64,000 nt of DNA. Source: Mytilus trossulus (taxonomy: Eukaryota). The stretch lies in the NCBI RefSeq assembly GCF_036588685.1, contig NC_086382.1, positions 72,664,001-72,728,000 of the forward strand, written 5' to 3'. The position numbers and the translations under genes were made by a program. Shown one piece after another: positions 3,838 through 56,200 of this stretch. Below the pieces are notes generated by a model. The model saw nothing but the letters and a program-made list of their open reading frames with translations. It had not been told where the DNA came from and searched no databases. Positions within the stretch are counted from its first letter, which is position 1. Every line of letters begins with the position of its first letter.

Positions 3838-5055
3838 TTATTTACAAACGAAATCCTTTGGTGTGAGCACAGCCCATGACTTGCCGGCAACTGGTGGTGG
3901 TCCTTTACAAACAGAAAGCCCTGTATCCTGTATCAGGTCTGGATGATCGTCTATCATTTGTCGGAGCCATCTTATATGACAGTCACAAATCCAAGGGTTA
4001 AAGTCTAAATAAATTACAGATAGATTTTTGTTGTATTTCAAATCAAATACTCCCTCTTGAAGTGTTGTTAAATTGTTCGAACTGAACCAGAGTTCCCGAA
4101 TAGCCGTCATTCGATGAAACGTTCCAACTTCAATTTTAGATACTTGATTTGAATCAAAGAAAAGTTGTTTTAATGCAGTGAGTCCATTAAAGGTGAGATT
4201 TGTTAAAACCGACGAGACGTGATCTTCCATAAAATCCAAAATTGTTAGCTTATTAAGTCCATAAAATGCGTTGTCCTCGACTGTTGTTATAGCGCCATTC
4301 CATACTTCTATTGTTTGTAAATTGGTCAATGTTCGCAGCGCAAAAGCAGGTATAACTTTTATCTGATTTCCAACCACATCAAAATGCTGTAAAGATCTTG
4401 GGAAATGTGTTGTATTTGGAAAGGTCTTCAGATCATTAAATCTGAATTCTAAATTCAATAACTTCTGATTCTTTACGAAAGATAACGGTGAAAAACTGCC
4501 ATCGACAAGTTTGTTAAAACTTAAATCAATTTCAGAAGCATTTACCAACGGATCAAAGACATGGTCTTCAATTGTTTTGAGTTGGTTGTATCTCAGTTCG
4601 AGGTATTCAATTGAAGATGCATTGACAAAACTATTGGCTGATAAATTTGTTATTGGATTATCGAAAAAATACAGTGTAGTAAAATTTGGGGGTAAACCTT
4701 GTGGTATTGACATATATGATCCACCTGAGAGGTCCAAAGTTTGAATGCTTGGAATGTTTAATGCGCCATTCAGAAAACTGGTTTCTGTGAACTGGTTACC
4801 ACCCAAACCTAGATACTGTAGTTGTTTAAGGTCCTTAAATGAACCTGTTGGTATCGATTTGATGTTGTTATATCCAAGATTTAAGGTCACTGTATTTTGG
4901 GGTAAATCTTTTGGAACCTCTGATATCCCAGTACTATTACAGAAAACTATAGTATTATCATCACGGCAATCACATGGAGAAGGACAATCGTCTGCTATGG
5001 TAAACGTAAACCTCAGTAATGATATCACCACGCATGTTAATGCAGAGTTCATCAT
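3838..5055 (-). CDS. Secreted LRR-only protein, paralog 1 (signal peptide, LRRNT, ~12-13 LRRs, LRRCT, no TM)
   Basis: 405-aa ORF: hydrophobic N-terminus, CPSPCDC...VFC cap, LxxLxLxxN repeats, NPWICDC...C..P...DFVCK* cap. Splice acceptor tttag| places the exon start at 5073; candidate 5'UTR donor AG|gtaag at ~5362. Confidence 0.93.
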   Translation of the reverse strand: MMNSALTCVVISLLRFTFTIADDCPSPCDCRDDNTIVFCNSTGISEVPKDLPQNTVTLNLGYNNIKSIPTGSFKDLKQLQYLGLGGNQFTETSFLNGALNIPSIQTLDLSGGSYMSIPQGLPPNFTTLYFFDNPITNLSANSFVNASSIEYLELRYNQLKTIEDHVFDPLVNASEIDLSFNKLVDGSFSPLSFVKNQKLLNLEFRFNDLKTFPNTTHFPRSLQHFDVVGNQIKVIPAFALRTLTNLQTIEVWNGAITTVEDNAFYGLNKLTILDFMEDHVSSVLTNLTFNGLTALKQLFFDSNQVSKIEVGTFHRMTAIRELWFSSNNLTTLQEGVFDLKYNKNLSVIYLDFNPWICDCHIRWLRQMIDDHPDLIQDTGLSVCKGPPPVAGKSWAVLTPKDFVCK

Positions 5056-6352
5056 GGTTAATTTGGTCCTAACCTAAAGTTTTGAAAATTTACAATTGTG
5101 TATATTAAGTAACAATGACGTAGACTGACCTATGGTAAATTGTAAATTCGAATGCTATCGATAGAAATACTTATATATACATGACGAAAAAGAAACTTTG
5201 TTTTAAAATATCTTTGGCAAACAATACAAAATACCTTTCCTTACATGAGATGCTAAAGTTACCAAATGACCTTTAAAAATCATTTTATCAAGACTGTGAA
5301 TTAAAGACTATTTAAAATGTTTATCTATATACGATTTGAACCAATTAAAATATTTAGCTTACCTTAGACAGTTGACTGATTTATAAATAGGACAAATTCT
5401 GGTATATTGGGACAGTAATGATACCGATTGTCCTAAAGTCAAACTATTAACCTTACAACAGATAGATAAATACTAATAATTCTTCAAGGTTAGTACATGT
5501 TCATCTTGCCACGTCTAGTATTCGGAGTGATCCAACCTTCGCAAATATAGATAACATTTGATTAACACAGAGGCATTCCCATTGATTTATAATTAAATTT
5601 ATCATAAACATAATAATACCTCAACATAACGACTAGTGTTCCAAATTTAGTTAGAAAGGTTCATATTAGTATGTTATACTCTATGATGCCGTTTTCATTG
5701 TTTTATTACTTCACACTTTTCTAGTAATGGACCATACGTAACACTATCCTACCTTAGTACGACCCTGAAAAAGCTACTTCCAACATTCTGGTTCTTACTG
5801 CGTTGTATTGGTATGCGACATCCGTTGTTTTCAGTCCTATCATTGTTTTTTTTGTTAAAAGACTTATAATTATACAATATCTTTATTCAGTATTTCTTTG
5901 TTTTTGGTTGTTATCCGGGTTGGTTTTTGCTTAACCGAAAGATGACTTTTGAACAGCGGTATACTGCTGTTGTTTTTATTTTCACGAATAATCATGAAAT
6001 GTATCGGTATTTCGCAAACATTATTTGGTCCGTTGAAGGGTTCTATTTAAAAGAAATTATCCCATACCTAATAATACGAAACAGTAGGTACAATAGTGTA
6101 GGATATCTTCAAAACAACCTATTTGATTGCATTTGTTGATCAGAAGATTATTGCTGTTACTACTTTTATTAATGTATGATACATTTGAAAAGGTTACATT
6201 TCGTGCCTTACAATATCAACATAAAAAACTAAGGATTTTCTTATCCCAGGAATAGATTACCTTAGTCGTATTTGGCACAACTTTTTGAAATGTTGGATCT
6301 TCAATGCTCTTCAACTTTGTACTTGTTTGGTTTTATAAATATTTTGATTTGA

Positions 6353-6395
6353 GCATCACTGATGAGTCTTATGTAGACGAAACGCGCGTCTGGCG
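6353..6395 (+). ncRNA. Minimal type I hammerhead ribozyme within a dispersed repeat (~6223-6430)
   Basis: gcatca CTGATGA gtct-tatgt-agac GAAA cgcgcg TC tggcg: intact core, 4-bp stem II, palindromic stem III. Confidence 0.8.
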
Positions 6396-6554
6396 AACTG
6401 AATAATAATCCTGGTACCTTTGATAACTATAAATATTATCAGTAGGTATAAAGATTTTGTCTGAGCAACTAAATTAATTCATGTTACATATAAAACAAAA
6501 TTATCAAAAAAAAACCAATTCATATTCTTTCTGACTTAAAATTGCTCAAACAGT

Positions 6555-7784
6555 TTAATTGTTATTTTCGTGATCAGCACAAACGAAGTCGTTTGGTTCT
6601 AAGCTATCCCAAGCCTTTCCAGCAACTTTTGGTGGTCCACTACACACTATAAGATGTGGATCCTGAATAACATTAGGTTCCTCCTCCATTTTTTGACGCA
6701 ACCATCTTAGATGACAGTCACAAATCCAAGGATTGTCGTCAATGTAAAGGGCAGATAACTGTGGAACAAAGGTTTTGTTGAGAACTTCTGGCACAAGTGA
6801 TGTTAATTTGTTGGAACCCAACCACAACTGTTGAATGCTTCTGGTAGTTTGAAACGCTCCAGGTTCTATTTTACTTATATTATTCAAATCCAGGAATACA
6901 TTCTGTAAACCAGTAAGACCATTTAATGTTAAATTTGTAATAGAAGAAACATGGTCTTGCATCATGTCTAAGTATGATAGTTTATTCAAACCATTAAATG
7001 CATTATTTTCGATATCGTTTATCTCCCCTTGCCAGAAAGCCATTGAAGTTAAGTTGGTGAGTGTTCGGAAAGCATAAGCTGGAATAACTTTTATCTTATT
7101 GCCAACGAAATCCAAACTTTGAAGCGAAACTGGAAAATTAGAAGTGTCAGGAATAGTCTTCAAATTGTTGAATCTGAATCCCAAATTTATCAACTTCTGA
7201 TTCTTGACAAAAGTCATTGGACCGAAACTTCCATCGACTAATTTGTTGAACGCAAGATCAATTTCTACAGCATTCACAAGCGGATCAAATGCATGATCTT
7301 CAATTTTGTTAAGTTGTGTGTTATCTAAGTACAGAAATTGGATCGTAGAATGATTGACAAAACTTGTTGCTTTCAACGTTGTTATTGGGTTATAATAAAA
7401 GTATATCCTGATTAGGTTAGGTGGCAGTTCCTGTGGTATCGTTATAAAGGAATTCTGAGTCAAATCTAACACAAGAAGACTCGGTATATTCAATGCTCCC
7501 TTTTCGATGCTACTTTCTTTAAAATTATTTCCTGAGAAATCGAGCCAAGCTAATTTATCTAGACCATCGAATGCGGTTTTTGCGATAAATTTTATCGGAT
7601 TATTTCCAATATATAGAGTCTCAGTGTTTATAGGTAAATCACTTGGAACATTGGTGATACCGGTCATATTGCAGTAAACAGTTGTGGAGATACATTCACA
7701 AGGTGGTGGACAGTTTTGTAACAATACAAAGTCGGGCACTAATATGAACACCATGACCAGTAAGGAACCAGGCAACATCATCAT
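6555..7784 (-). CDS. Secreted LRR-only protein, paralog 2
   Basis: 409-aa ORF colinear with paralog 1 (CPPPCEC, NPWICDCHLRWL, DFVC). Acceptor ttctag| at 7793, just upstream of the ATG. Confidence 0.93.
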   Translation of the reverse strand: MMMLPGSLLVMVFILVPDFVLLQNCPPPCECISTTVYCNMTGITNVPSDLPINTETLYIGNNPIKFIAKTAFDGLDKLAWLDFSGNNFKESSIEKGALNIPSLLVLDLTQNSFITIPQELPPNLIRIYFYYNPITTLKATSFVNHSTIQFLYLDNTQLNKIEDHAFDPLVNAVEIDLAFNKLVDGSFGPMTFVKNQKLINLGFRFNNLKTIPDTSNFPVSLQSLDFVGNKIKVIPAYAFRTLTNLTSMAFWQGEINDIENNAFNGLNKLSYLDMMQDHVSSITNLTLNGLTGLQNVFLDLNNISKIEPGAFQTTRSIQQLWLGSNKLTSLVPEVLNKTFVPQLSALYIDDNPWICDCHLRWLRQKMEEEPNVIQDPHLIVCSGPPKVAGKAWDSLEPNDFVCADHENNN

Positions 7785-9815
7785 TCTGTATACCTAGAAA
7801 GGAAATCATATAAAAAAATAAGAAGATGAGTAATGATTGTCAATGAAACAACTCTCCACATGATACCAAACGATAGGAATAAAATTCATATTTTCATATA
7901 TTTCAAATTCAAATATTTAACTTATTACAATCACTCAACGATTTTTACATCTAAAGTTTATATTTCCTAGTAAGTAAAACAATAATTAATAGGGGTATGT
8001 CATTATTTCCAAGATAGAGAAAGTGTTTAAATGATAGCTATTGAACTAAGGGTACTTGTTGGTGGAGATAAAGTCATCTTTCCGACAATAATCAAAGCAG
8101 GCCATCATGATTTGGTGGATCTGTATGGAATATTTATGTTACGGATGACCACGAATTTGGTGAGGTTGTCATAACCATAATCCCGTTCAAGTTGACTTAC
8201 ATATATTGCGTAGGAATCATTATTCACAACTGTCTCTCAAACAAAAATATGTTTCGAGGCAGTTGAATTTACAAATAAAAGTCGTTACCAAAAGTTTCTC
8301 TTCTGCTAACAGATTTGCTTTGATTGATATTGTTTTTCAAACTATCTGTCATCAACAAATATTGGACGATAAATAATGCAAAACTTTGTAATACTGTGAT
8401 TATATTGATTTAAAATAAATAATATCATTATCACTGAGCTAAAGGGCGGGAAATTTTTCATTACTATCCCTGGAAATGAACGTATTTGAGATAGGGCAGA
8501 CAATTTTCTTCATTTTCTTCAATTTTTTCATGCTTCTTTATTTGGCACAGATTGGGACACTTTACTTACACAAATCATTTATTAACACCGGAAATGACTC
8601 ACATCCAATTTGTACAAATCATATAGCCAAACGTACAACACACCTAGGAAAATAAGAAGATCTGGTAGGATCAGAATGGGACACCTCTCAACATTTGACC
8701 AAATTATACAGAAATAAATAACTATAGGCCACCGAACGCCCTTCGGCAATAAACAAAGCCCACACCGCATTGTCAGCTATAACAGGTTTCCGAAATGACA
8801 AGTAAAACAATTAATACAAGACAGATAACTGCCTAATTTATGCACAACACAATGAATGGATAACAATATGTAACACAGCAACAAACGGAAACCACTGAAC
8901 TATAGGCTCCTTACATAGGACAGGTACATCAGGAATGTTGCGGGGTTAAAACACTTTGACGGTGTCAACCCACCCCAAATTCTGGGATAGTGTTGCAACG
9001 TCACTACACAAGACAAATCCATACAAAACAAGAAACGAATTTGAGAAAACAGCGCTCAAAAGACAACCACTGAATTACAGACTCCTGACTTAAGACAGGC
9101 ACATATAGAAATTGCGGGGTTAAACCAGTTGCAAAGCACCTACCCTCCCTTAACCTGAGATATTGATGAAACAGTACAACATAAGAATAAGCTACAGAAA
9201 TGCTTAACTCGTCAGATGGATAACAAAACAAAGAGTGGGTGTGGATGGGTACTTATACATCCCCACAGTAAAATTACCCTTGGTAAAGAACTATGTGTTA
9301 TATAGTTACTGACACTACTTCAAAGTCATTACCCACTAATAAAAAAAGGCATGCATCTAAGACTAAGCCTCAAAACCCAGTAATGGCAATATGTCTATGT
9401 CGCATTCAACCAGTAAATGACAGGATGAGTAGGATTTTCAGCATTCTTGCTACAAAGTTAACAGCCAATATTAAACCCCCATTATTTTAGTTGGAACCAT
9501 TTTACTGACTCTCAAACCAACAAATTCATAACTCGAGCGCTATAACGATAGAACCAAAGCTGTAAATTCTAGGTTGGCTTAGTCAGGGATAAACCCGATG
9601 ACCACTCCTATTTACGGTTAATAAGATGTGACAAGTCCTTGAAATTAGGGAACTACCAATTGATTATTCTTGTAATTCAAAACAGTTTATCAGATTCTTT
9701 ACAACGGGCGTTACTATCTCTTATATACATTTGTACTATAATTAATGAATTTTATTATTACGCACATCTCTATATACTTGTAATCATAACAAGGCTTTTA
9801 AAAAAATATTTTAAT

Positions 9816-13731: not shown

Positions 13732-15033
13732 TTAATTTTCGCATACAAAGTCCTCGGGTTTCAAGACATCCCATGCTTTTCCGGCAACTTTGGATGGTCC
13801 ACTACAAACAATAATATGTGGATACATTATAGTGTATGTTGCATTGTCCATTTTTTCCCTCAGCCATTTCAGGTGACAGTCACAAATCCATGGATTAAAA
13901 TCCATAAAAACTGAAGACAAACGTGGCATAAATTTGGTATCGAGGACTCCAGGGTCGAGGGTACTAAGCTTGTTATCACTCAACCATACATCTTGTATGC
14001 TTGTCAAGGAATGAAATGCTCCTGTCTCTATTTTACTTATCTTATTGTCGGTAAGGTATATTGTTTTTAATGCTGTTAGTCCATCTAATGTATGATTGGT
14101 AATCGGTGATGAAATTTGATTGTCCATGAAATTTACAATTGTTACTTTTGTTAATCCAAAGAATGCGTAATCAGCAAGAGTAGAAAGGGGACTATCCCGA
14201 ATCTCAATAACCTGGATGTTCGGTAGATGTCGGAAACCATATGATGGTATGACAGTTATGGGATTTCCAACGAAATCAAAATTTTGCAAAGTTGCAGGAA
14301 AATATGTCATGTTTGGAAATGTTTTAAGATTGTTGTATCTCAAAGATAAATACGTCAGATTCTGATTTTTAAAAAAGGCTGTTAGAGGTATGCTTCCGTC
14401 CTCCAACTGGTTGAAGCTTATGGCTATGTTAATAGCACCGGTCAATGGGTCGAATGCGTGTTCTTCAATCTTGCTAAGATTTGTATTACTTACAGTTAAA
14501 TACTGAATAGAAGGGTATTTAACAAAACTTGAGGCTGTCAATGTTTGAATTGGGTTATAAGCTATCGCAAATCCAATTAGTTTAGGAGGTAGTATTTGTG
14601 GAATTGAAGTGAATTTATTTATCGATAAATCCAAATTGGCAATGCTAGGTAAATCAAGTGCACCGTCTTGTATACTTCCTTCTTTAAACTGGTTATCTGT
14701 AAGATCAAGCGACTGAAGATGAATCAATCCGCTAAATGAATCTGTTGGTACTACTTTTATCTGATTCGATCCGAGATATAAAGAAACTGTCGTTATTGGT
14801 AAATTCTTTGGAATTTCGGTAATTCCTATCCCATTACAATACACTTCAGTATTTTCGGTTTGACATGTGCAAGGAGAAGGACATTCACCTGCTTGGGAGA
14901 TCGTGGTAAATAACATCAGATGAAGGTACAGGAGAACCATTATAACATCAGATGAAGGTACAGGAGAACCATTATAACTGTCATCATTGACCATCAGATG
15001 AAGGTACAGGAGAACCATTATAACTGTCATCAT
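13732..15033 (-). CDS. Secreted LRR-only protein, paralog 4; N-terminus disrupted by a tandem repeat (in-frame ATGs include 15033 and 14940)
   Basis: Intact LRRNT-LRR-LRRCT body. The acceptor tttcag| is at 16048, beyond the repeat array; expression is uncertain. Confidence 0.8.
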   Translation of the reverse strand: MMTVIMVLLYLHLMVNDDSYNGSPVPSSDVIMVLLYLHLMLFTTISQAGECPSPCTCQTENTEVYCNGIGITEIPKNLPITTVSLYLGSNQIKVVPTDSFSGLIHLQSLDLTDNQFKEGSIQDGALDLPSIANLDLSINKFTSIPQILPPKLIGFAIAYNPIQTLTASSFVKYPSIQYLTVSNTNLSKIEEHAFDPLTGAINIAISFNQLEDGSIPLTAFFKNQNLTYLSLRYNNLKTFPNMTYFPATLQNFDFVGNPITVIPSYGFRHLPNIQVIEIRDSPLSTLADYAFFGLTKVTIVNFMDNQISSPITNHTLDGLTALKTIYLTDNKISKIETGAFHSLTSIQDVWLSDNKLSTLDPGVLDTKFMPRLSSVFMDFNPWICDCHLKWLREKMDNATYTIMYPHIIVCSGPSKVAGKAWDVLKPEDFVCEN

Positions 15034-16041
15034 TGACCATCAGATGAAGGTACAGGAGAACCATTATAACTGTCATCATTGACCATCAGTTGAAGGTACA
15101 GGAGAACCATTATAACTGTCATCATTGACCATCAGATGAAGGTACAGGAGAACCATAATAACTGTCATCATGAAGGTACAGGATAACCATAATAACTGTC
15201 ATCATTGACCATCAGATGAAGGTACAGGAGAACCATTATAACTGTCATCATTGACCATCAGATGAAGGTACAGGAGAACCATAATAACTGTCATCATTGA
15301 CCATCAGATGAAGGTACAGGAGAACCATTATAACTGTCATCATTGACCATCAGATGAAGGTACAGGAGAACCATAATAACTGTCATCATTGACCATCAGA
15401 TGAAGGTACAGGATAACCATAATAACTGTCATCATTGACCATCAGATGAAGGTACAGGAGAACCATTATAACTGTCATCATTGACCATCAGATGAAGGTA
15501 CAGGAGAACCATAATAACTGTCATCATTGACCATCAGATGAAGGTACAGGAGAACCATTATAACTGTCATCATTGACCATCAGATGAAGGTACATGAGAA
15601 CCATAATAACTGTCATCATTGACCATCAGATGAAGGTACAGGATAACCATAATAACTGTCATCATTGACCATCAGATGAAGGTACAGGTGAACCATTATA
15701 ACTGTCATCATTGACCATCAGATGAAGGTACAGGAGAACCATAATAACTGTCATCATTGACCATCAGATGAAGGTACAGGAGAACCATTATAACTGTCAT
15801 CATTGACCATCAGATGAAGGTACAGGAGAACCATTATAACTGTCATCATTGACCATCAGATGAAGGTACAGGAGAACCATTATAACTGTCATCATTGACC
15901 ATCAGATGAAGGTACAGGAGAACCATTATAACTGTCATCATTGACCATCAGATGAAGGTACAGGAGAACCATTATAACTGTCATCATTGACCATCAGATG
16001 AAGGTACAGGAGAACCATTATAACTGTCATCATTGACCATC
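14914..16041. repeat. 46-bp minisatellite, ~24 units plus one 32-bp partial unit, derived from the start codon/signal-peptide sequence of paralog 4
   Basis: Minus-strand unit gtcaATGATGACAGTTATAATGGTTCTCCTGTACCTTCATCTGATG, head-to-tail with no spacers. One unit near 15170 has a 12-bp deletion. Confidence 0.97.
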
Positions 16042-16488
16042 AAGTGTGCTGAAATAAATTCAACTTTGAAGTTATTTTGTTTCTATAAGGTAACATTGAA
16101 CTTTCAGGGTTTTGACCGCAAGTCGGTTTATTTTCCAATTTCAGCCCAGGTCTAGATATCATAATTGGTCAAAGGTTTTACCTGACGGTAAAATAGATTT
16201 AAAGTTGAAGCAAAATTTTATCTGCAGTACAAATGAGATATTGCGCATCAAGCTTTGGCGATCGTCAGAATGTTAACAAAATTTGGCAATTGCGCTTGAA
16301 GTCTTGGTTGTTTTCAGTCTAATTGTTTTTGTATATTAGAGGATACAGAAATTTGATAATGACGTATTAGAATAATTACTACTGGTTGTACTTTCTTAGC
16401 TGTATTTGGCAAAACGTTTAGGAATTTTGGTCCTCAATGCTCTTCAACTTCGTACCTTTTTGGGCCTTTTTAACTTCTTTGGATTCAA

Positions 16489-21019: not shown

Positions 21020-21578
21020 CTGTGTATTAAAATAATAATAGGCTAAGAATTTGTTTGAGAGCCTTTTGGTCATGACTGTTTGTCTCTAATATTTAATTAA
21101 CTGTGCATTTGTATTCAGATATCGCAGATCAAATTTATTCGTTCTTTGTGTAATCATACGTTTTTTGATTGAGTTAAGTCTGCTAATTGATATTTTATCG
21201 TATGTTTTTATATGTTGTGATGTTATGCTATTGTTTCAGAAAAAGGGAGAAGGTTTGGGCCCATTAAAACGTTTAATCCCGCTGCAAATGTTTGCACCTG
21301 TCCTAAGTCAGGAATCTGATGTACAGTAGTTGTCGTTTGTTTATGTAATATATACGTGTTTCTCGTTTCTCGTTTTGTTTATATAGATTAGACCGTTGGT
21401 TTTCCCGTTTGAATGGTTTTACACTAGTAATTTTGGGGCCCTTTATAGCTTGTTGTTCGGTGTGAGCCAAGGCTCCGTGTTGAAGGCCGTACTTTAACCT
21501 ATAATGGTTTAATTTTTAAATTGTTATTTGGATGGAGAGTTGTCTCATTGGCACTCACACCACATCTTCCTATATCTA
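21020..21578 (+). mobile_element. Dispersed non-autonomous retroelement-like copy carrying a twister-like motif
   Basis: Shares its terminus with other copies in the window and the cctgtc.aagtcagg core with the Penelope-like 3' region at 45350-45441. The 5' boundary is approximate. Confidence 0.7.
21236..21319 (+). ncRNA. Twister-ribozyme-like motif, P5-type permutation (best copy); predicted cleavage U21274^A21275
   Basis: P5 tcaga/tctga; P2 tccc/ggga; GA; T1 cct/agg; UAA; T2 gc/gt; P3 tgcaaa/tttgca; P4 cctg/cagg with loop U-CCU-AA-GU. No canonical P1. Confidence 0.7.
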
Positions 21579-36897: not shown

Positions 36898-36927
36898 ATA
36901 AAATTATAATTCTGGAACCTTTGATAA

Positions 36928-37476
36928 TAAAATTGAGAATGGAAATGGGGAATGTGTCAAAGAGACAACAACCCGACCAAAATAAAAAAACACAACAGCA
37001 GAAGGTCACCAACAGGTCTTCAATGAAGCGAGAAATTCCCGCACCCGGAGGCGTCCTTCAGCTTGCCCCATAACAAATATATACTAGTTCAGTGATAATG
37101 AACGCCATACTAATTTCCAAATTGTACACAAGAAACTAAAATTTAAATAATACAAGACTAACAAAGGCCAGAGGCTCCTGACTTGGGACAGGCGCAAAAA
37201 TGCGGCGGGGTTAAACATGTTTGTGAGATCTCAACCCTCCCCCTATACCTCTAACCAGTGTAGAAAAGTAAAAGCATAACAATACGCACATTAAAATTCA
37301 GTTCAAGAGAAGTCCGAGTCTGATGTCAGAAGATGTAACCAAAGAAAATAAACAAAATGACAATAATACATAAATAACAACAGACTACTAGCAGTTAACT
37401 GACATGCCAGCTCCAGACTTCAATTAAACTGACTGAAAGATTATGATTTCATCATATGAACATCAGGCACAATCCT
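36928..37476 (-). mobile_element. 5'-truncated 3' segment of a Penelope-like element, inserted into the end of a hammerhead repeat
   Basis: Reverse complement of ~45128-45677; flanked by the direct repeat tttgataa (36920-36927, 37477-37484). Confidence 0.75.
37166..37256 (-). ncRNA. Twister-ribozyme-like motif, P5-type, second family
   Basis: Minus strand reads ggttagagg tata gggg ga ggg ttgagatctcacaaacatgtt taa cccc gc cgca tttt tgcg cctg t ccc aa gt cagg ag cctctggcc. Confidence 0.7.
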
Positions 37477-40264
37477 TTTGATAACTATTTGTAAAACGTC
37501 ACCAATGTCTGAGCAGAATTTTGATGAACCAGGGTAATGTTAAAAACAGAAGATAATTGGAAGGATCCAAGACCTTGTTATTAAATATTTCGTACCTACG
37601 TCACAATTGGTACATGATAGTTTTGAAGAATAGATTCTGAGTACTTACCTTGTTTGTCAACTTCATAACGTGTAAATAAACTCATCATAGATACCAGGTT
37701 TCAAATTTTATATCTACACCAAAAATATATTCTTTCATTTATCTTTTTGAATATTGATTTTACTGTTTAGTCTATTTTTGGTGTTCATTTGACGTGGCTA
37801 CATACTTGTACACCCCGTCATTGTGTTGTTGTGTTACAGTAAATTTTTGTATTCTTGTCTTTCATTTTTGCTTATGTGCTTTGTCTATATGCCATTTTGT
37901 ATATCTTTGATACATATTGCTTTGTTTTTATAGTGATAACGCTGATAACACAATGCTGACTGTTGGACCACTATTTTGTTATTTTTACCTATTGTGTCTG
38001 GATTGTTTTTTCAAACTCCATTGTCAATATAATAGAACGTTATGCGACTGTTATACACGTGTGAGGTTTAACTAGGTATATAACTAGGTTAAATCCACCA
38101 GGTTTTTTTACAAAATGAAATGCCTGTCTGAGTTAGGAATATGATAGTTGTAATCCATTCGTTTAATGTGATTGTGTTTTTAATTTTGCCAATTTTACGG
38201 GACTTTCCGTTTTAAATTTTCATCGGAGTTCATAGTTTTTGTGATTTTACTTTTTATTCTCGATAAAAGAAACGATTTTTTAGTGGAAGAAGACGTCAAG
38301 TCTTCTGAAGACTTAAGGGGCCGACCCTTGGCATTGAGTCTCTGTATGCCGCATTCGTTTCTGTGTATTACAATTTCAAAACAACTTAGATTCCTGACAC
38401 CGATTTTTACACATGATTAGGCATCTGAATCATTTAATTTGTAAATTATGATTGTAAAACAATCACAATCGTAAATATGACCCTTTTATTAATGTAAATT
38501 ACTAGATTTCATCTCATCCACATGAACGTTATTTGTTTACTTGTAACAGGATGTTTTAACTGTAGATATTTGTATTACGCATGCGTGAATTTGGTATCGG
38601 GACAACTCGCCCTGTTTACAAGTTCGCCCTTGAAGTTACGAATTTTCAATCCTGCAGACAAGAAGATTTTGTTTTTATATAAATAAAAAGGATATATAAA
38701 GTGTTGTCTTTATTCATGGTTTTCTTTTGTCATGTGAATTAGATGCCCTTCGTAACATACAAGTGAACCTCCCGTTTAGGAGCAAAAACTCCCGTGTATG
38801 AAATTTTTCAGACTCCATATTTGAACATTTACTACTGTACGGGTGTAATTGACACCTGTGTTAAATTTTACCTGAACATCAAAGAAGATGTATAATTATA
38901 TGGCTTCACTTGACAACTTGGGTGTCAAACATACTGGTAATCAACGATGTTTACCTCCGGCTAACTGCCGTTGTGTTATCAAAACGATGTGTATTGGGAA
39001 TATTGAAATACTTTTTTGTTACTTCCCTTTGTTTTATCCTGTTTTCAGTTATTTTGCTTTTAAAATTGTAAATTGCAAAAAGACTAAAAATGATTAATAT
39101 TTTAATCATTAATCATAAAAGGATGTTGATTAAATGAATTTAAATGATTTTGGACAAATAAAAAAATTAAAATTTGTAAATTATTTTAGCAAACTAGACC
39201 TCCTTTCAAGGATTAAATTGAAGTTTATATAATAAATTTGTTTACATCTGATTTGATTTAACATACAATATGTGCAACTAGACTAATAAAAGGTCTAGTA
39301 GTTGGATCCTAGTAAAATTTTGAAATTTAAATTTGTAAATGTTAGTAAATAGCAAGACATTGTACACTGTTTTTAAGTCTTTTTAAGCTTTCTACAAATA
39401 TGACTTTCATAATGCTTAAAATCCATGCAGTACTAGTGTTAGTGTATGTTATTTTTTTAATTAATTTACGATGTTGCAAATATACATGTGGAGCTTATTT
39501 CTTTCTTATTTGTCTATACATTTACAAATGATAAGGAGATGGAAACACGAACAAAAATATATACAGATAAGATATATAAATATAATGATTCATTTGCAAG
39601 CAGTGAACAATCATTTGTCAAAAACAAAATAAAACAAAACAAGAAACAGATTCTTCTTATTATTTTATTTAATTCAAATAGAGAGGCAATAAGGGAACTA
39701 TAAACATTACAATTTGATGGAAATTTGATGAAAAAACACAATTTCTACATCATTTGGTTACATTAACGACAAAATTTATGTCGATAAAAAAACATGATGT
39801 TTTGACCATTCAGTACTTAATAGATGCATAGTTCTTGGGGAAAAGTTTCATCAAATAATATGAATATAAATGACTTTTTTTGTGCTCATTTTTTTCAGTG
39901 GGTTGTGATGATCTTCCAGTTAGGTTACCCTCATTTGGAGTGTTGTTCCCAACTTGTTAAAGGTCCATCTTTGTGCATAATTCAAAATTGGAAATTTCAA
40001 CAAGCATCTAATATTCTTAATCTGGAAAATAAACCCTGGTCTGCTAGCTTCATGTATATTTTTTCTACCGATTTAATATATAACTAGAATCATGCAAACA
40101 GACTTAAGGAAAAGGCATGTAAGTTCATCATACAAATATGACACTTTTTCTAGACAATCCAGATCTTGCAAAATACGTCGCTAAAAATTGTAACCTTTAA
40201 AATTGTTGTTGTGCAGTAAAAACCAATATGGAAACTTTCAAAAGTTATGTAACAAGTCTTACTA

Positions 40265-44819: not shown

Positions 44820-45677
44820 AATTCTTATACGTTTAGGTATTTCACATCCAATTTTTTTATGGAAAAATTCTTTATAGAGCACAAAAATGTCAGTATTCAC
44901 CACAGAAACTAACTAAACCTTTAAATAGACTTATAAAGAAGGGATATAGTTACGATACTGTTGTCAGGTCATTAAAGATCGCATATTTTGGTGTTAATAT
45001 TGATTCACTTATAGGGTCTTTGCATCGTAACTAAATACATTTATTAAAAAAAAACAGTTGTTGGCATGACAAGGATTACGTTCTTCTCATATATGTTATG
45101 ATGGTATGATACTAAACCCCTTACGGGAAGGATTGTGCCTGATATTCATATGATTAAATCATAATCTTTCAATCAGTTTAATTGAAGTCTGGAGCCGGCA
45201 TGTCAGTTAACTGCTAGTAGTCTGTTGTTATTTTTGTAGTATTGTCATTCTATTCATTTTCTTTTGTTACATCTTTTGACATCGGACTCGAACTTCTCTT
45301 GAATTGAATTTTAAATGTACGTATTGTTATGCGTTTACTTTTCTACATTGGCTAGATGTATATGGGGAGGGGTTGAGATCTCATAAACATGTTTCACCCC
45401 GCCGCATGTTTGCGCCTGTCCCAAGTCAGGAGCCTCTGGTCTTTGTTAGTCTTGTATTATTTTAATTTTAGTTTCTTGTGTACAATTTGGAAATTAGTAT
45501 GGCGTTCATTATCACTGAACTAGTATATAATTGTTTAGGGGCCAGCTGAAAGACGCCTCCGGGTACGGGAGTTTTTCGTTACATTGAAGACCTGTTGGTG
45601 ACCTTCTGCTGTTGTTTTTTCTATGGTCGGGTAGTTGTCTCTTCGATACATTCCCCATTTCCATTCTCAAGTTTATT
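44820..45677 (+). mobile_element. Penelope-like retroelement 3' fragment (ORF C-terminus plus 3' region)
   Basis: Frameshifted peptide GISHPIF/YGKILYRAQKCQYSPQKLTKPLNRLIKKGYSYDTVVRSL...*, then a ~640-bp tail ending cattccccatttccattctcaa, a terminus also seen at ~18790, 26480 and 36930(-). Family assignment is from memory. Confidence 0.55.
45350..45441 (+). ncRNA. Twister-like motif in the 3' region of a Penelope-like element; cleavage-site A mutated (tttCacccc), probably inactive
   Basis: Same family as 37166-37256, with substitutions in P5 and at the U^A site. Confidence 0.55.
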
Positions 45678-47269: not shown

Positions 47270-50200
47270 TTAAAGCATATCTTTTGGCATTTCGCTATAT
47301 TTATTAAGAACTTTTCTGTCTACTATAGTGAATTGTCTGGTAAGTATGTTTGAAGATATCACTTTCGATTGTCCCGGTTGCTGACCACCTATAAATAACT
47401 GTATCTTTCCTGAAAAAGAAATGAGATGGTTTTTTTTACTTTTTCTTTAACATTTATATTCATTACTAGTACTTAAACACAAACTCTGCATATTAAGCAT
47501 TGACCAGATTTCCTTACAAAGAAACGAAATACCATTGTCAACGTCCACACATAAGTTTTATTCAATTATTCAAAATATGTAAAATAAAAAACAAAATATA
47601 GACAAAAACAGCTTTGAAAACGATTTGAAACATTATTTTACTGAGCTGGGCACATAATTCAGCTTAAAACATATTTCTTATCCACGCAAAGTGCCATTGG
47701 ATCTAATTATTATTCTATCGCGAATAAGAAACATAAAATGACCTACCAAAGCTTTCAGAAAGAAAAAAAAGCAAACTCGGTAATGCACATGTTATTTGAA
47801 AGACTTAAAAAATATATAAAAATGAATTCTTGATCGTCCTTTAAATAATCCCTTTGAACATTACAAACGTAGAAGAAATCAACAGGAACATTGTACATGA
47901 TCTTTATTCTTATATTTATTTTTTAAGCATTAGCAGAATCAAAGACAATCGGAATTACCTGGTTCTATAACAAATCCGTCCTTGTCATCCCATACCGCCA
48001 TAGATTCAGGTGATATAAATAACAAGAAGTTCAACACCTGTTGTGGCTCCAGGTGAACTCTCTTAAATGACACTAACTGAATATTTGGCATCTCTTGTGT
48101 AATGTTTGTCCATTTAAGGTATATCTGTACTATCTGTAACAAAAAGACTCACAGCAATAACAATATATGTTCGTGGGGTATATTTCAGTAACGTTGTTAT
48201 ATTTAATAGAAAAATATAAATCTAGTGGGGTTTTTACTAGTTTTTTTTCTATGATCGTTTGCAATTTAACATATAGATCTGTTTTAACGTCTTCTTTATG
48301 ATTTATTAATTTTATTTGTATACATTTTCAACATTGGTTTCAAAAGAAAAAATTACAAAAATACTGAACTCAAAGGAGATCCTATTAGATAGTTCATAAT
48401 CACATGGCAAAATCAAATGACAATACACATCAAAAACGAATGGACAAGAACTGTCATATTTCTGACTTAGTACAGGCATTTTCAAATGTAGAAAATGGCT
48501 GATTAAACCTGGTTTTATAGCGCTAAATCTCTCACTTTGTACGACAGTGTAAAATATAAAGGGATGAACACTCATTTCCTTTGAAAAACAAACAAATATG
48601 TATTATAGTGACAGATGTTAAATAATTTTTATCATATATTATGTTTCGCATGCTCCTATTGGATGTGTGCAAGGATATACATACTGCACTTATATTGTAA
48701 TTATTTATACCTCATCTCCGGCATATGGACCACTATTGCCTACTTCGATTCGTATCCCTTGTTTAGTTCCAGCTTTGATAGATGGATTCATCCATGCGTT
48801 ATAATAATAGAATTTGGAATATGATAATCCATAGCCGAATGGATATAGTGGTTTTCCAGTAAAATATCGATAGGTTCTCTGTGTCATGGAATAATCTGTC
48901 ATTGATGGAATCTGAAATGTTATATTTGCATAGTTTTAATTGTTGGAGTGCTGTGAAATTCGTGTACTTATTAACAAAAGTATGAAAATATAAGCAATTA
49001 ATGGAATGGTATGTTTCAAAACTACTACTTTGAACTTGATTTCTTGACATATTTGCTTGCTCACTCATTAATCCATTCATTTTTATTTACATCAATGTTA
49101 AAAGTGATACCTAGTATGCATCATCATGGTAAATGGTTGTCGTCTTAGTAATTTCGAATGGTTACTGAGGGTACTGTACCATTTAATGTCCTTTATAGAA
49201 TTGTTTAAATCGAAAATAAAAATAGCGGTATGTTAAATACTTCTTTCTTCCTTTTATTAAAATATTTCGTTACTAAATCAATAACTTGTTCACTATTGAT
49301 GACCATAAATTTGAAATATTTAATAGATGTTCATCAAATAATAAATTTCGTGGACGATGTAAATTTCTGTTTTTGAAGTTTTTATTATGTAAATAACCTG
49401 ATTCCTATTCTTATACCACGTAAATGGCAGCCTTCCTGCAGGATTTGAATTGTTTCCACTGTTAGTTAACACCTGCTTAATGGCATCCCCAGTTGCTTGA
49501 GCAGGAAAAAAACATTCCATAATGGAATATATACGCGGGTGTTCATCCATCCAAGTTATATTTAAGGGTCCAGCATTAAATAACAAAAGTACAATTGGTG
49601 TAGATCCTAAGAAAAATAAAACTTTGAAGTTTTAATTTAGATTTACTCACATTCAATAAATATAAAGTATATGGTAAATGAAAAAATTAAGGTTTTTCCT
49701 AGTTCAAACATAATCCAATGTAAAATAGAAATGGAAATGTGAAATAAAAACTCCTGAAGTTTGACGCCCTTACACTCGCAGGGTTTTGTATCTTACCATG
49801 TACCAAACAAACTAATCTTAATGAAATAAAATAAACATAGATAGCAACCGAAAAATCCAGCCTGGTCAACAAATTTCATCTGATGTAAGCGGATTACATA
49901 ACGATTTACGCTGTGAGCAGATCGTATTGCATAAAAGTGTGTGTATTCACACATGTTATAACCGTTGAAGTCCGACTGAAATTATGCATTCTCAATTTTA
50001 TTTAATGAAAAAACTTCTTTTGTGACTATCATTTTTGTGCTAGCAGATCTTTAGTGAGATATTCAGCTATCTACAAAACATGTTTAATCCACCATTTTCT
50101 ACATAGGAAATTGACTGTATCAAGTCAGGAATATGACAGTTGTTATCGATTCGTTTGATGTGTTTACGCTTTTGATTTTGCCATTTGAAATCTTTAATTA

Positions 50201-53200: not shown

Positions 53201-56200
53201 TGAAGACCGTAAGGTGACCTATATTTGTTAATTTCTGAGTCATGTTGGTCTCTTGTGGAAAGTTGTCTCATTGGCAAACATACCACATCTTCTTATTTAT
53301 TTTGGCTACTCAATGACTGTCACTGAAATTTCAGTATCTCAGATATAAACTATAAACAACACAAAATAATTTTGAATTATGATAATATGACATCCTTAAA
53401 ACATTTAATGCTATATAAGACTAGAGAAAGATTGGCCCTACATGGGATTCTTTGTGCATTATGAAATTAATTATAAGTAACGTGGAGTTCATTGACAAAC
53501 ATGGATTTGTGTTCTTTTATAGTTTTGCCAAAAGCCCGAAAATAAAGAAATAAAATTGATCTAGCTTTAAATTTTCTTACAAGAAATACTTATTCAAAGA
53601 ATGACTGCAAAGTTGAGAATAAAATAACGCATATTCCGCAAAATTAGAAACAAACTTATTAAAAAAGCATAAATACTCGGTATATGAAAAGTATGCTGCA
53701 TACATATGCATGGAAGATATTGTAGAGAAAACTATTGAAGGTACTAAGCAAGGAACATTTTTGTATTTGCATACTTGCCATATAATTAGTACTTTTCTAT
53801 TAAATGAAAACAAATATTAGCCTTACCTAATTTATGCATTTTTCTGAAGCACACAACATTTGTTTTAAAATCTATAAAAATCTTTGTAATTAAACCAGTT
53901 CCGACTGTGATGATCTACATGTAATGCCCTTTGATGTAATTTATCAATATACATATTTGTGGTTTTTTTCCGTCTGTCAAATGCTTCGTAAGACTAAAGG
54001 TAAGGTTAATAAAAACAAAAAACAAAAGTAACAATAAACAAAAGTAACAAAAAACAAAAGTGACAATAAACAATAGTAACAATAAACTGGTAAGTATTTA
54101 AGATCCTTTACCATCCACACTGTTTAAGGAAACGTCCTAATAAGCATGGGTATTTGATCAAAACATTTGAATTTAATTTTTAAAATCATATATTATATCA
54201 GTATAAAATAGAAAAAGTGAATCCAAGGGGGAAATATGGACGGCTGAATTTATTGAATTATAAGGAAAAGGGAGATATGAACACTAGATCCGACAGTTAT
54301 AAAGTTATTGACGGAAACTTTTGTTCATTTCGCACATAATTTTAGTATAAACGTGATATAAGAGGCAACACATATGACATATGAAAATGTGGTATAAGTG
54401 ACTTACATTTTGAGCAATGAATTGAAAGGATTGCACTTTTGGAATATGGAATAAAGCTAATCCATCCTTTTTCTCATCAAATAGAGATATATAGATAAAT
54501 TTATCCTAGATATTAACCCGTAAATTTCTTCATTTATTTTTATATGCGTTAATGTCATCGTTAAACTGGGCATTTACATTTTTAACACACAAAATACCAT
54601 TGAAATGCTGAGACACATTTATTAATTTTCAGTTACTTTTATCCGATAAAGAAAATTACGATTATCAAAGAAGAAAAATAACATAGAGATACGATTATCA
54701 TCCCGAATTTTTCAACGGCTATTTTCACAGCGCTTAGACAATTCCAGTGCACCGTTACGATTCAAATATGATGTAATGGTATAGATAAACCTTGCAGCTG
54801 AGTAACAGTTTTCTATTGACAAAAACATGCTACATTTAAGAAAAACGAGTGTAAAGATTTTACCTATATCTACCGTCGCCATATTGGGATAATCGCAATT
54901 GCAGTTACGATTATCTCTTTAATACCAGTGAAAGTGAATTTAAAGAATTCTTTAAATGTCAGTGTTGTATATCTACAAAATGTATCTTACGCATAGAAAA
55001 ATAGATCGGTTTCTCCAGGTTGGTTGACAGTTCCAAGTTACATCCAGCATTAACACACAAAGCTACTGTGTCTACAGAGTTATTGGTATAGTGGTGATAG
55101 TCTATGATGTTCTCTATAGCAGCTTGGTCACTCACCACGTAACCTGTAAATCCAAGCTCTTTACGGAGGATATCTGTCAGGAGCTTCTTGTTACCACATG
55201 CTGGTACACCATTTATCCTTCAATATGATTATGTATTACTATAAAAATGCATTAAGACACGTATCAAAAATCTTTATTGGCATATGAATCATAAAATACG
55301 ATAACAATATAATAAAAGCATCATGAGGGGAACATATTACGATCCCAAATTAAGACATGCCGAAGATTCAGTCTGATTGTGTCAAGCTCAAAGATGTTCC
55401 GTGTAGTGAATAATGTTACAGAGACAGTAAAGAGCTATTTCTACACAAATGGAAAGAGAACGCCACGGTATAACTAAATACAGTTGTGTTTTCCTATAAT
55501 ATGGGCCTTGTCTTTTCTTTGAATTTATATGCAATTATTTATGGTCGTTTTGATATTCTTAAACGAAATGTTTTGCCAATATAAGTTATTAAGCACACTA
55601 TTTAGCTTATCTATACCTATTGAAGCTACACATGAAACTGTAAGTTCCAGCTTCTACACATTTTTTGAATGCAGGTAGAAATGTTAATCTCCAATCTCTT
55701 TCTGTCACCTGTAAATATATATATACATGTCATAAGTAAGTTTATCAGAAGATTAAGATAATGATGATAAATGCACAAAAATACATTTAGAAATGTTCAC
55801 ATTTCCACATCGCAAAAATATTTTTTATTGCAAAAGTAAAATCACAAAAATACCAGTTTCTTAATCAAATGGCACAATCAAAAGCTCTTATACATCATAC
55901 GAATGGATAACGACTGTCATCTTGGTACAGGCATTTTCATTTGTAGAAAATGGTGGCTTAAACCTGGTTTTATAGCTAGCTAAACCTTTCACTTCTATGA
56001 CAGTCACAAAATTATAAAAGCTTACCTTTGCGTCAAATGAAAATCTAGACACAGGAATATTTTCTGGTCCTCCATGGACGTCCAGGTGTTTACATCCAGC
56101 ATTAGTTCGGACATAACGCGGATTTCCCCCTTGTAATCCCTGAACAAAACTATAAGCTAGAGTTCCCGACAGAAGGGGATCTTCTCCATATGTCTCCTGA

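Follow-up and report, generated by a model that had tools for sequence, protein, structure and literature searches.

Two palindromes in place of stem P1 in a twister-like fold of Naiad Penelope-like retroelements

On the minus strand of the window, by which we mean the whole 64,000-nucleotide stretch of DNA analysed, positions 37166..37256 can be drawn as a type-P5, that is, circularly permuted, twister-like fold of 91 nt. The drawing has one gap: the 22 nt that stand at the position of P1 form no stem and hold two palindromes instead. The locus raises the question of whether such a fold is a twister at all, in what kind of element it resides and what two self-complementary tracts may be doing beside a predicted cleavage site. 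An earlier note, made from the letters of the sequence, had described a twister fold with P1 lost and had suggested dimerisation or a conformational switch, active only in tandem transcripts. The first half of that description agrees with what we find, both in the covariation of the core and in the missing P1 pairs; the suggested activation fared unevenly and is taken up further below.

The twister-like core and its parts

Read from 37256 on the minus strand, which is the sense strand of the element, the motif consists of P5, a 4-nt linker, GGGG, G, A, GGG, the 22-nt segment and AA, and continues with CCCC, GC, the P3 hairpin, P4 with its U-CCC-AA-GU loop, AG and the P5 partner. The parts follow one another as in a type-P5 twister; both pseudoknots are present, and the catalytic A and G stand where expected. 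The 5′ strand of P5 (37248..37256) forms 9 bp with 37166-37174 at pair probabilities of 0.98-1.0, and in other families unrelated P5 sequences pair in the same way. P2 joins its 3′-side strand GGGG (37243-37240) to its 5′-side strand CCCC (37210-37207); the former is followed by the predicted general-base G (37239), an A (37238) and the T1 strand GGG (37237-37235). The predicted cleavage site U^AA occupies 37211..37213, the cut, placed according to the twister consensus, falling between 37213 and 37212, 287 nt upstream of the element's 3′ end, and A 37212 being the predicted general acid. Beyond P2 come the T2 strand GC (37206-37205), the P3 hairpin (37204-37193) and P4 (CCUG/CAGG) with its loop L4 (37177..37192; pair probability 0.99), all on the minus strand. 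We take the residues of the focal motif to map onto those of the rice twister.

The core can be judged by how its paired parts change together. In this genome, the T1 pseudoknot occurs as CCC/GGG, CCU/AGG and ACC/GGU, with two-sided change in two of its three pairs, T2 varies between G.U and A-U, and P3 is closed by C-G or U-A; the stems P2 and P4 are backed by folding as well as by covariation. In an alignment of seven related sequences, in which only one P2 pair is scored, the alignment being out of register at P2, paired cells make up 94.8%, against 23-46% for slid controls. An intact core was parsed in 79 of 223 profile hits, by a parse that requires conserved bases and gives a set enriched for family F1. 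The general-acid A, the A next to it, the general-base G and the U and AA of L4 (the roles of the conserved catalytic nucleotides are set out in passages of PMC11662667) are all present in the focal copy, and they are kept in all five families found here and in all eight published Naiad ends that bear the fold. By covariation, the focal fold is a twister core, and very probably its RNA self-cleaves at U^A like other twisters.

The motif can be set beside the type-P5 twister consensus (Roth et al. 2014), as passages of PMC5408937 describe it. The two agree in the termini lying in P5, in P2, an optional P3 and P4, in the covarying T1 and T2, in the N^AA site, in the G-A before T1 and in the U-NNN-AA-GN form of L4. 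They differ in that P1, one of the three stems that the consensus treats as 'essential', is missing from the motif, 0-2 of its four pairs being formed in each of eight representative segments, and its place is held by a loop of 19-24 nt with two sequence-variable palindromes. P2 is, moreover, reduced to 3 bp with a bulge in F2, F4, Bpla and Mphi, and the Rfam twister covariance models give no gathering-score match in the window and none at E<=10 in 36900-37500. Since both P1 and the Rfam models fail, we file the motif as a twister-like variant and not as a canonical member.

A Naiad host and its relatives

The motif lies in the 3′ UTR, or pseudo-LTR, of a 5′-truncated solitary element copy of 552 nt (36926..37477, minus strand; family F1), whose fixed 3′ end is at 36926. 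The copy is 98-99% identical to 30 genomic loci with a sharp common 3′ end and a variable 5′ start, and it belongs to a young family, as all 40 scored genome hits are 100% identical over 121 nt. Long copies encode, by eye, an N-terminal GIY-YIG (IQYVGET), CNC (CxC), PADKAA (DKA) and a C-terminal YLDD RT; Pfam gave no curated match on two ORF halves. N-terminal GIY-YIG, CxC, DKA and C-terminal RT are the diagnostic set of Naiad Penelope-like elements (PLEs; Craig et al. 2021, PMC8557442), and the likeness extends from the order of domains to the 5′ truncation, the partial tandems and a unit of 3.4-4.4 kb: locus L037 is a head-to-tail partial tandem with a unit at 4643-8657, of 4,015 nt or 4.0 kb. 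The twister motif stands on the sense strand, about 340 nt past the ORF stop and downstream of a SECIS-like hairpin. The latter is complete at L037:8075-8132, about 60 nt past the ORF stop; the focal copy keeps its 3′ arm (37461..37474, minus strand), the remainder having been lost by 5′ truncation. In other families, a Naiad RT ends 155-663 nt upstream of the F2, F3 and F5 motifs, a full-length Naiad ORF lying upstream of the F5 motif in L178, and no upstream Naiad RT link was found for the F4 motifs. From these sequence features, a Naiad PLE is well supported as the host. The position of the F1 twister matches the PLE layout given in passages of PMC11167929, where the pseudo-LTR contains the ribozyme and reverse transcription has an internal start further downstream.

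The reading frames have a feature of their own. The F1 ORF (L037:5170-6575) contains four in-frame TGA codons, at least three of them at sites described for the selenoprotein Naiads of clams (8 aa past DKA, the first CCHH Cys, the zinc finger), and F5 (L178:4698-7418) likewise has an in-frame TGA. An in-frame UGA combined with a SECIS-like hairpin is known from Naiads (PMC8557442), and judging by sequence, F1 and F5 look like selenoprotein Naiads in a mussel, one absent from the metadata of the 2021 paper.

In the genome, one motif pattern has 11,257 hits and 0 control hits, and the motif profile gives 169 hits in 1.12 Mb, in five main families (F1 to F5), and 0 on reversed sequence. In one raw RNA run (X24; 6,883 reads used, ~6% of the run), depth is ~1,000 or more within the element and under 20 past its end; the motif itself is covered ~950-1,100x with no pile-up of starts or ends at the predicted site, in reads whose strand is unknown and from which cleaved RNA may be lost.

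A retrozyme-like satellite was ruled out as the host, as none of the short tandem arrays among the window repeats examined contains the focal motif. The window does have a 46-bp tandem array of about 24 copies and 95% identity (14946-16042). It also has, at +6359, +16495, +36860 and -36178, hammerheads of the minimal PLE type whose stem III is palindromic and which belong to another PLE family. The focal Naiad copy adjoins the opposite-strand hammerhead at +36860, which we rejected as a part of the focal element: the 30 F1 loci share no such flank, and it belongs to a separate PLE. Within 36926-37477 there is no CUGANGA / GAAA hammerhead core. Between the twister and the fixed 3′ end, the F1 tail contains a conserved GC-rich stretch with hairpin potential (37017-37070, minus strand), a candidate protein-binding or RT-initiation element.

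The fold recurs among the published Naiads. Of the 54 consensi in File S5 of PMC8557442, 31 had their 3′ ends judged by eye, 24 of them over the last 500-700 nt, and eight show the twister fold: those of the ctenophore Mley, the hydrozoan 4_Chem, the box jellyfish 1_Movir and the bivalves Mgal, Bpla, Mphi, Scon and Mmer. The other 23 have no twister within the stretch examined. The F2 motif and its flanks match, again by eye, the 3′ end of the published Naiad_Mgal, which points to a mytilid mussel as the probable host. Among the eight, T1 takes the versions CGA/UCG and CAC/GUG, with U.U as the third pair in Mphi, Scon and Mmer, and T2 is GC/GC, or CC/GG in two clam Naiads; four further versions of P2 and four of P4 (CCCG/CGGG, ACCG/CGGU, CCAG/CUGG or CCGG/CCGG) are added. 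The original paper reports Naiads to be without canonical hammerheads; the word 'twister' has 0 occurrences in its main text, and the motif stands in its consensus file, undescribed in the parts examined.

Two other patterns came up in the same set. Ten of the 31 ends (CGi, Sglo, Olur, Tgra, Pmar, 1_Skow, 2_Skow, 1_Pfla, 2_Pfla and 1_Chem) carry another conserved RNA-like motif with one variable 10-nt palindrome (TGACCGGTCA, TAGCTAGCTA, TTGCATGCAA, CCACATGTGG, TAGCATGCTA or ACTCTAGAGT), placed between GGGTG and a CAG(A)G...CT(C/T)AC element. This may be another self-pairing ribozyme, perhaps one resembling twister-sister; it had no match in the local sequence with a pattern that may have been too tight. 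In the Bfor, Amil and Plae ends, GCCGAAAC precedes CTGATG, whereas hammerhead core blocks usually come in the opposite order, and these are possibly permuted hammerheads missed by the canonical descriptor.

Palindromes that keep their symmetry

As the earlier note held, the segment at the position of P1 cannot close as a simple hairpin: on top of the missing P1 pairs, its hairpin energy taken alone is 0 to -1.1 kcal/mol in all eight representative segments. In the focal copy, palindrome A (TGAGATCTCA, 10 nt, 37233-37224, minus strand) starts 1 nt past T1 and has a self-duplex energy of -15.4 kcal/mol, and palindrome B (AAACATGTTT, 10 nt, 37222-37213, minus strand) has one of -8.8 kcal/mol; the centres are 11 nt apart, and the last nucleotide of B is directly 5′ of the predicted scissile bond. 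The other tracts that the note had named are also present. The F5 motif at 21223..21333 (plus strand) has TGGGCCCA as A (21256-21263) and AAACGTTT as B (21267-21274), and two F2 motifs on the minus strand combine a B of AAACC-A-GGTTT with TAGCGCTA in a decayed copy (48451..48555) and with TAGCTAGCTA in a copy that has lost the 3′ side of P4, so that part of P4/L4 is gone (55913..56011). Both F2 copies are real, but 48451 and 55913, given in the note for the palindromes, are the downstream ends of the motifs. An older F1 copy (45341..45445, plus strand) has the first A of the cleavage-site AA changed to C. The window copies at about 1395 and 9100 are without clean palindromes; having best relatives that are just 79-83% identical, they look like old decayed single copies and not like family consensuses, and palindromy is not refuted by them. 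Separately, 8882-9190 (minus strand) contains two old twister-like motifs ~174 nt apart, an unusually short repeat.

The register of the palindromes is tied to the core. A begins 0-2 nt past T1, B ends at, or one base before, the nucleotide N-1, and 11-12.5 nt separate the two centres; in a set of 18 distinct segments, palindromy has sharp peaks at a centre 6.5 from the 5′ side and ~3.5-5 nt before the segment end. Against 799,602 background windows, the chance of two palindromes in fixed register is 0.20% for arms of at least 3 and 0.023% for arms of at least 4, figures that cannot be multiplied across the families because these share ancestry. The summed self-duplex energy of -19 to -27 kcal/mol is matched by 0-19 of 1000 dinucleotide shuffles. 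Taken by pair, the duplex energies are -13 to -19 kcal/mol for A:A, -6 to -9 for B:B and -3.3 to +0.6 for A:B.

The earlier note had made its proposal hang on palindromy being conserved across the family consensuses, and conserved it is, with compensatory change at the centre. Among 100 listed copies of the 2,754 F5 hits, obtained with the tract left open in the pattern and counted by eye, the two innermost bases of A are GC in 57, AT in 34, TA in 6 and GT in 3, which makes them self-complementary in 97 copies with three different centres. F4, an older family with many single mutants, has CATG centres and a CTAG minority (~11 among 100 copies listed), F2 has a symmetric 2-nt indel in the palindrome, and F1 and F3 differ by GA..TC versus GG..CC flanking GATC. 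We counted 11 different self-complementary 6-mer centres for A and nine for B, and both palindromes are present in all five families here and in all eight published ends that bear the twister. The two innermost bases of A are adjacent and unpairable in a hairpin, so that only a duplex with a second copy explains their compensatory change; the unpaired central base that B often has fits a duplex rather than a hairpin; and the U.G closing pairs seen on the sense strand (F3, Bpla, Mley, 1_Movir) favour RNA over DNA. Pairing of the palindromes between two RNA copies is strongly implied by these patterns, and in all likelihood A pairs with A′ and B with B′, be it between tandem pseudo-LTRs or between two RNAs held by protein.

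Pairing between copies and its possible link to cleavage

The purpose of the pairing can be read in more than one way. The reading that we prefer is that P1 has been replaced by two palindromes that pair with those of a second copy and that self-cleavage is promoted when copies meet; taken as a whole, we hold it with slightly less than even confidence. Granted cleavage at U^A and the pairing of A with A′ and B with B′, the balance tips somewhat in favour of the pairing gating cleavage, by stabilising the active fold or by stripping away a monomer misfold. The partner strand would span the gap left by P1, from the last base of T1 to the strand with the cleavage site; it would come from the other pseudo-LTR of a tandem transcript or from a separate RNA that the element's protein holds together with the first (a PLE protein is modelled as a dimer in passages of PMC11167929). 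Such gating would spare host transcripts that carry thousands of solitary copies.

Geometry narrows the form that this pairing could take. On geometric grounds, a strand-swapped core is ruled out, since all four helix ends would have to come together; with a domain-swapped two-helix dimer geometrically excluded and A:B pairing nil, each core should stay intramolecular. The homodimer fold given by ViennaRNA was a strand-swapped misfold and was set aside. In the model, the one-turn spacing of the centres suits two side-by-side helices with their crossovers on one face. As two closed loops cannot wind two near-full-turn helices and stay unlinked, a single kiss, by the stronger A, is expected before cleavage, and the full two-helix form would become accessible once the cut frees the 3′ end of B.

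Gating is favoured by the palindromes adjoining both catalytic strands and by a parallel in other PLEs. The minimal type-I hammerheads of PLEs (Cervera and de la Pena 2014; Lunse et al. 2017) have, according to passages of PMC6765202 and PMC7761336, a palindromic stem III and cleave as dimers. Like these, the Naiad motif lies in a PLE pseudo-LTR, upstream of a fixed 3′ end, and has palindromic sequence in place of a required helix beside the cleavage site, with a dimer proposed. The analogy had been drawn in the earlier note and has become stronger than was claimed there: a Naiad is a PLE, and its twister motif occupies the site that the hammerhead has in other PLEs. It also has its limits. 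The catalytic class is different, there are two palindromes instead of one, the helix missing in the Naiad motif is dispensable in twisters, and the geometry permits only cis cores bridged by the partner. Double hammerheads, in contrast, have a strand-swapped core.

The dispensability of P1 counts against gating. A twister without P1 retains wild-type activity according to PMC5408937, and P1 imperfections were without effect in a screen of 1,948 twisters, according to passages of PMC11662667; the monomer may simply cut. Hammerhead cleavage was, furthermore, unnecessary for PLE insertion in vitro in the experiments described in parts of PMC11167929. The preferred reading is also weakened by the missing Rfam match and by the 23 of 31 published ends in which the stretch examined has no twister. 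As to the conformational switch of the earlier note, the idea has some hold in F1. There, the lowest-energy monomer fold sequesters the cleavage-site AA with a probability of 0.98-0.99, barring the segment from cis pairing releases the AA, and sequestration of T1 in two common F1 segments is as high in just 3 and 5 of 100 shuffles. In F2, F3, F4 and F5, by contrast, the off-fold is within the range of the shuffles (21-62 of 100 as high), and in this comparison, made with a model that ignores pseudoknots, a conserved monomer off-switch is unsupported outside F1. Activity in tandem transcripts only, as the note had it, is not directly supported: 4.0 kb separate the tandem units, a unit start follows the 3′ end at one of 60 loci in an exact-match test, the RNA depth in run X24 falls off past the element's end, and pairing between separate RNAs is equally allowed.

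If the monomer does cleave alone, the palindromes may act afterwards, the freed A-B 3′ ends of two RNAs zipping into a two-helix dimer that would hold two template RNAs for a dimeric RT/endonuclease, or hold ends for re-ligation into circles. We regard this as a credible minority reading. It draws not only on the dispensability of P1 but also on B ending exactly at the scissile bond, so that the cut frees it, and on the spacing of about one turn, which would fit a closed two-helix dimer that is topologically allowed only with a free end; the predicted dimeric state of the PLE protein (in the same passages of PMC11167929) and the RNA ligation to circles proposed for PLEs in passages of PMC6765202 would suit it as well. 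Genomic copies, however, end 287 nt past the cut, so a B-ended RNA would not be a template unless re-ligated, and a pure dimerisation signal could have occupied the freely varying P3 or P5 instead of adjoining both catalytic strands. The RNA reads, without end pile-up at the site, speak weakly against it, their strand being unknown and cleaved RNA perhaps lost.

It is unlikely that P1 was lost and that the palindromes fold into short hairpins within one strand or bind a protein, the RNAs never pairing in trans. The outer three pairs of A do close a 4-nt loop in some folds, and parts of B pair with the tail of T1 in nested folds, but the hairpin energies given above are close to nil, the innermost two to four would-be loop bases covary as complements, and the 11 different 6-mer centres of A argue against a sequence-specific protein.

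Still less likely is a role at the DNA level, with the palindromes, merely lying inside a ribozyme, being sites for a dimeric DNA-binding protein or endonuclease, p53-like half-sites or a means of cDNA fold-back. RRRCWWGYYY is the consensus of the p53 half-site. The sequence AAACATGTTT fits it, but the B of F2, F5 and Mley does not, and with only some families fitting, the half-site reading was dropped. Recognition of pLTR DNA by the PLE endonuclease, described in passages of PMC11167929, would agree with a DNA-level role; against it, the symmetry stays while the sequence changes, the U.G closures on the sense strand make sense only in RNA, and the palindromes keep a fixed register with the ribozyme core.

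A catalytically dead twister-like scaffold, serving for protein binding or dimerisation only, is highly improbable, for although there is no Rfam match, no end pile-up in the RNA reads (subject to the same reservation about strand and lost RNA) and a U.U third T1 pair in three published bivalve Naiads, the cleavage-site A, its neighbour, the general-base G and the U/AA of L4 are kept in every family here and in every published end with the fold.

The nearest relatives in other elements are the truncated twisters at the 5′ end of RTE non-LTR retrotransposons, in preparation according to a passage of PMC7761336, and the P1-less mini-twister. The former share with the Naiad motif a twister in a retrotransposon, and a reduced P1 is common to all. 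The RTE twisters, unlike the Naiad motif, are at the 5′ end of a LINE and the mini-twister is engineered, and the passages on them mention no palindromes or dimer. In openly available full texts, with few of their supplements, we found no description of a palindromic or a Naiad twister; unusual twister permutations were sought and none found according to passages of PMC10085705, and 'twister' does not occur in a 2026 retrozyme preprint, nor 'Naiad' or 'Penelope' in a 2026 preprint on ribozyme discovery. By its sequence, the Naiad motif would share its way of working with the type-P5 twister, and it shares its place in the element with the PLE hammerhead; it is a variant for which we found no published description.

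Naiads dominate many invertebrate genomes and have been described as lacking the hammerhead of other PLEs, an absence in which a hint was seen that hammerheads may merely be parasites of PLEs (PMC8557442). Finding a twister in the hammerhead's position, once more with palindromes next to the predicted cut, speaks for an RNA that cleaves itself and pairs with itself as part of the PLE life cycle, and the role of PLE ribozymes becomes testable with a 91-nt RNA. More tentatively, self-cleavage gated by a partner may have arisen in PLEs on at least two unrelated ribozyme scaffolds: the Naiads, from ctenophores to bivalves, would have a natural dimer-dependent twister in which a second copy, through two helices spaced by one turn, takes the place of P1, and another Naiad lineage would use a further structured RNA with a single variable palindrome. 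If so, PLE ribozymes would exist to count RNA copies, whatever their chemistry class. The palindrome-paired twister fold is, as far as sequence conservation can tell, a real and deeply conserved feature, from comb jellies to clams, and its link to cleavage is a matter of modelling; if the gating is true, it would be a natural concentration-sensing twister architecture, missed by Rfam and present in over 11,000 copies in one genome.
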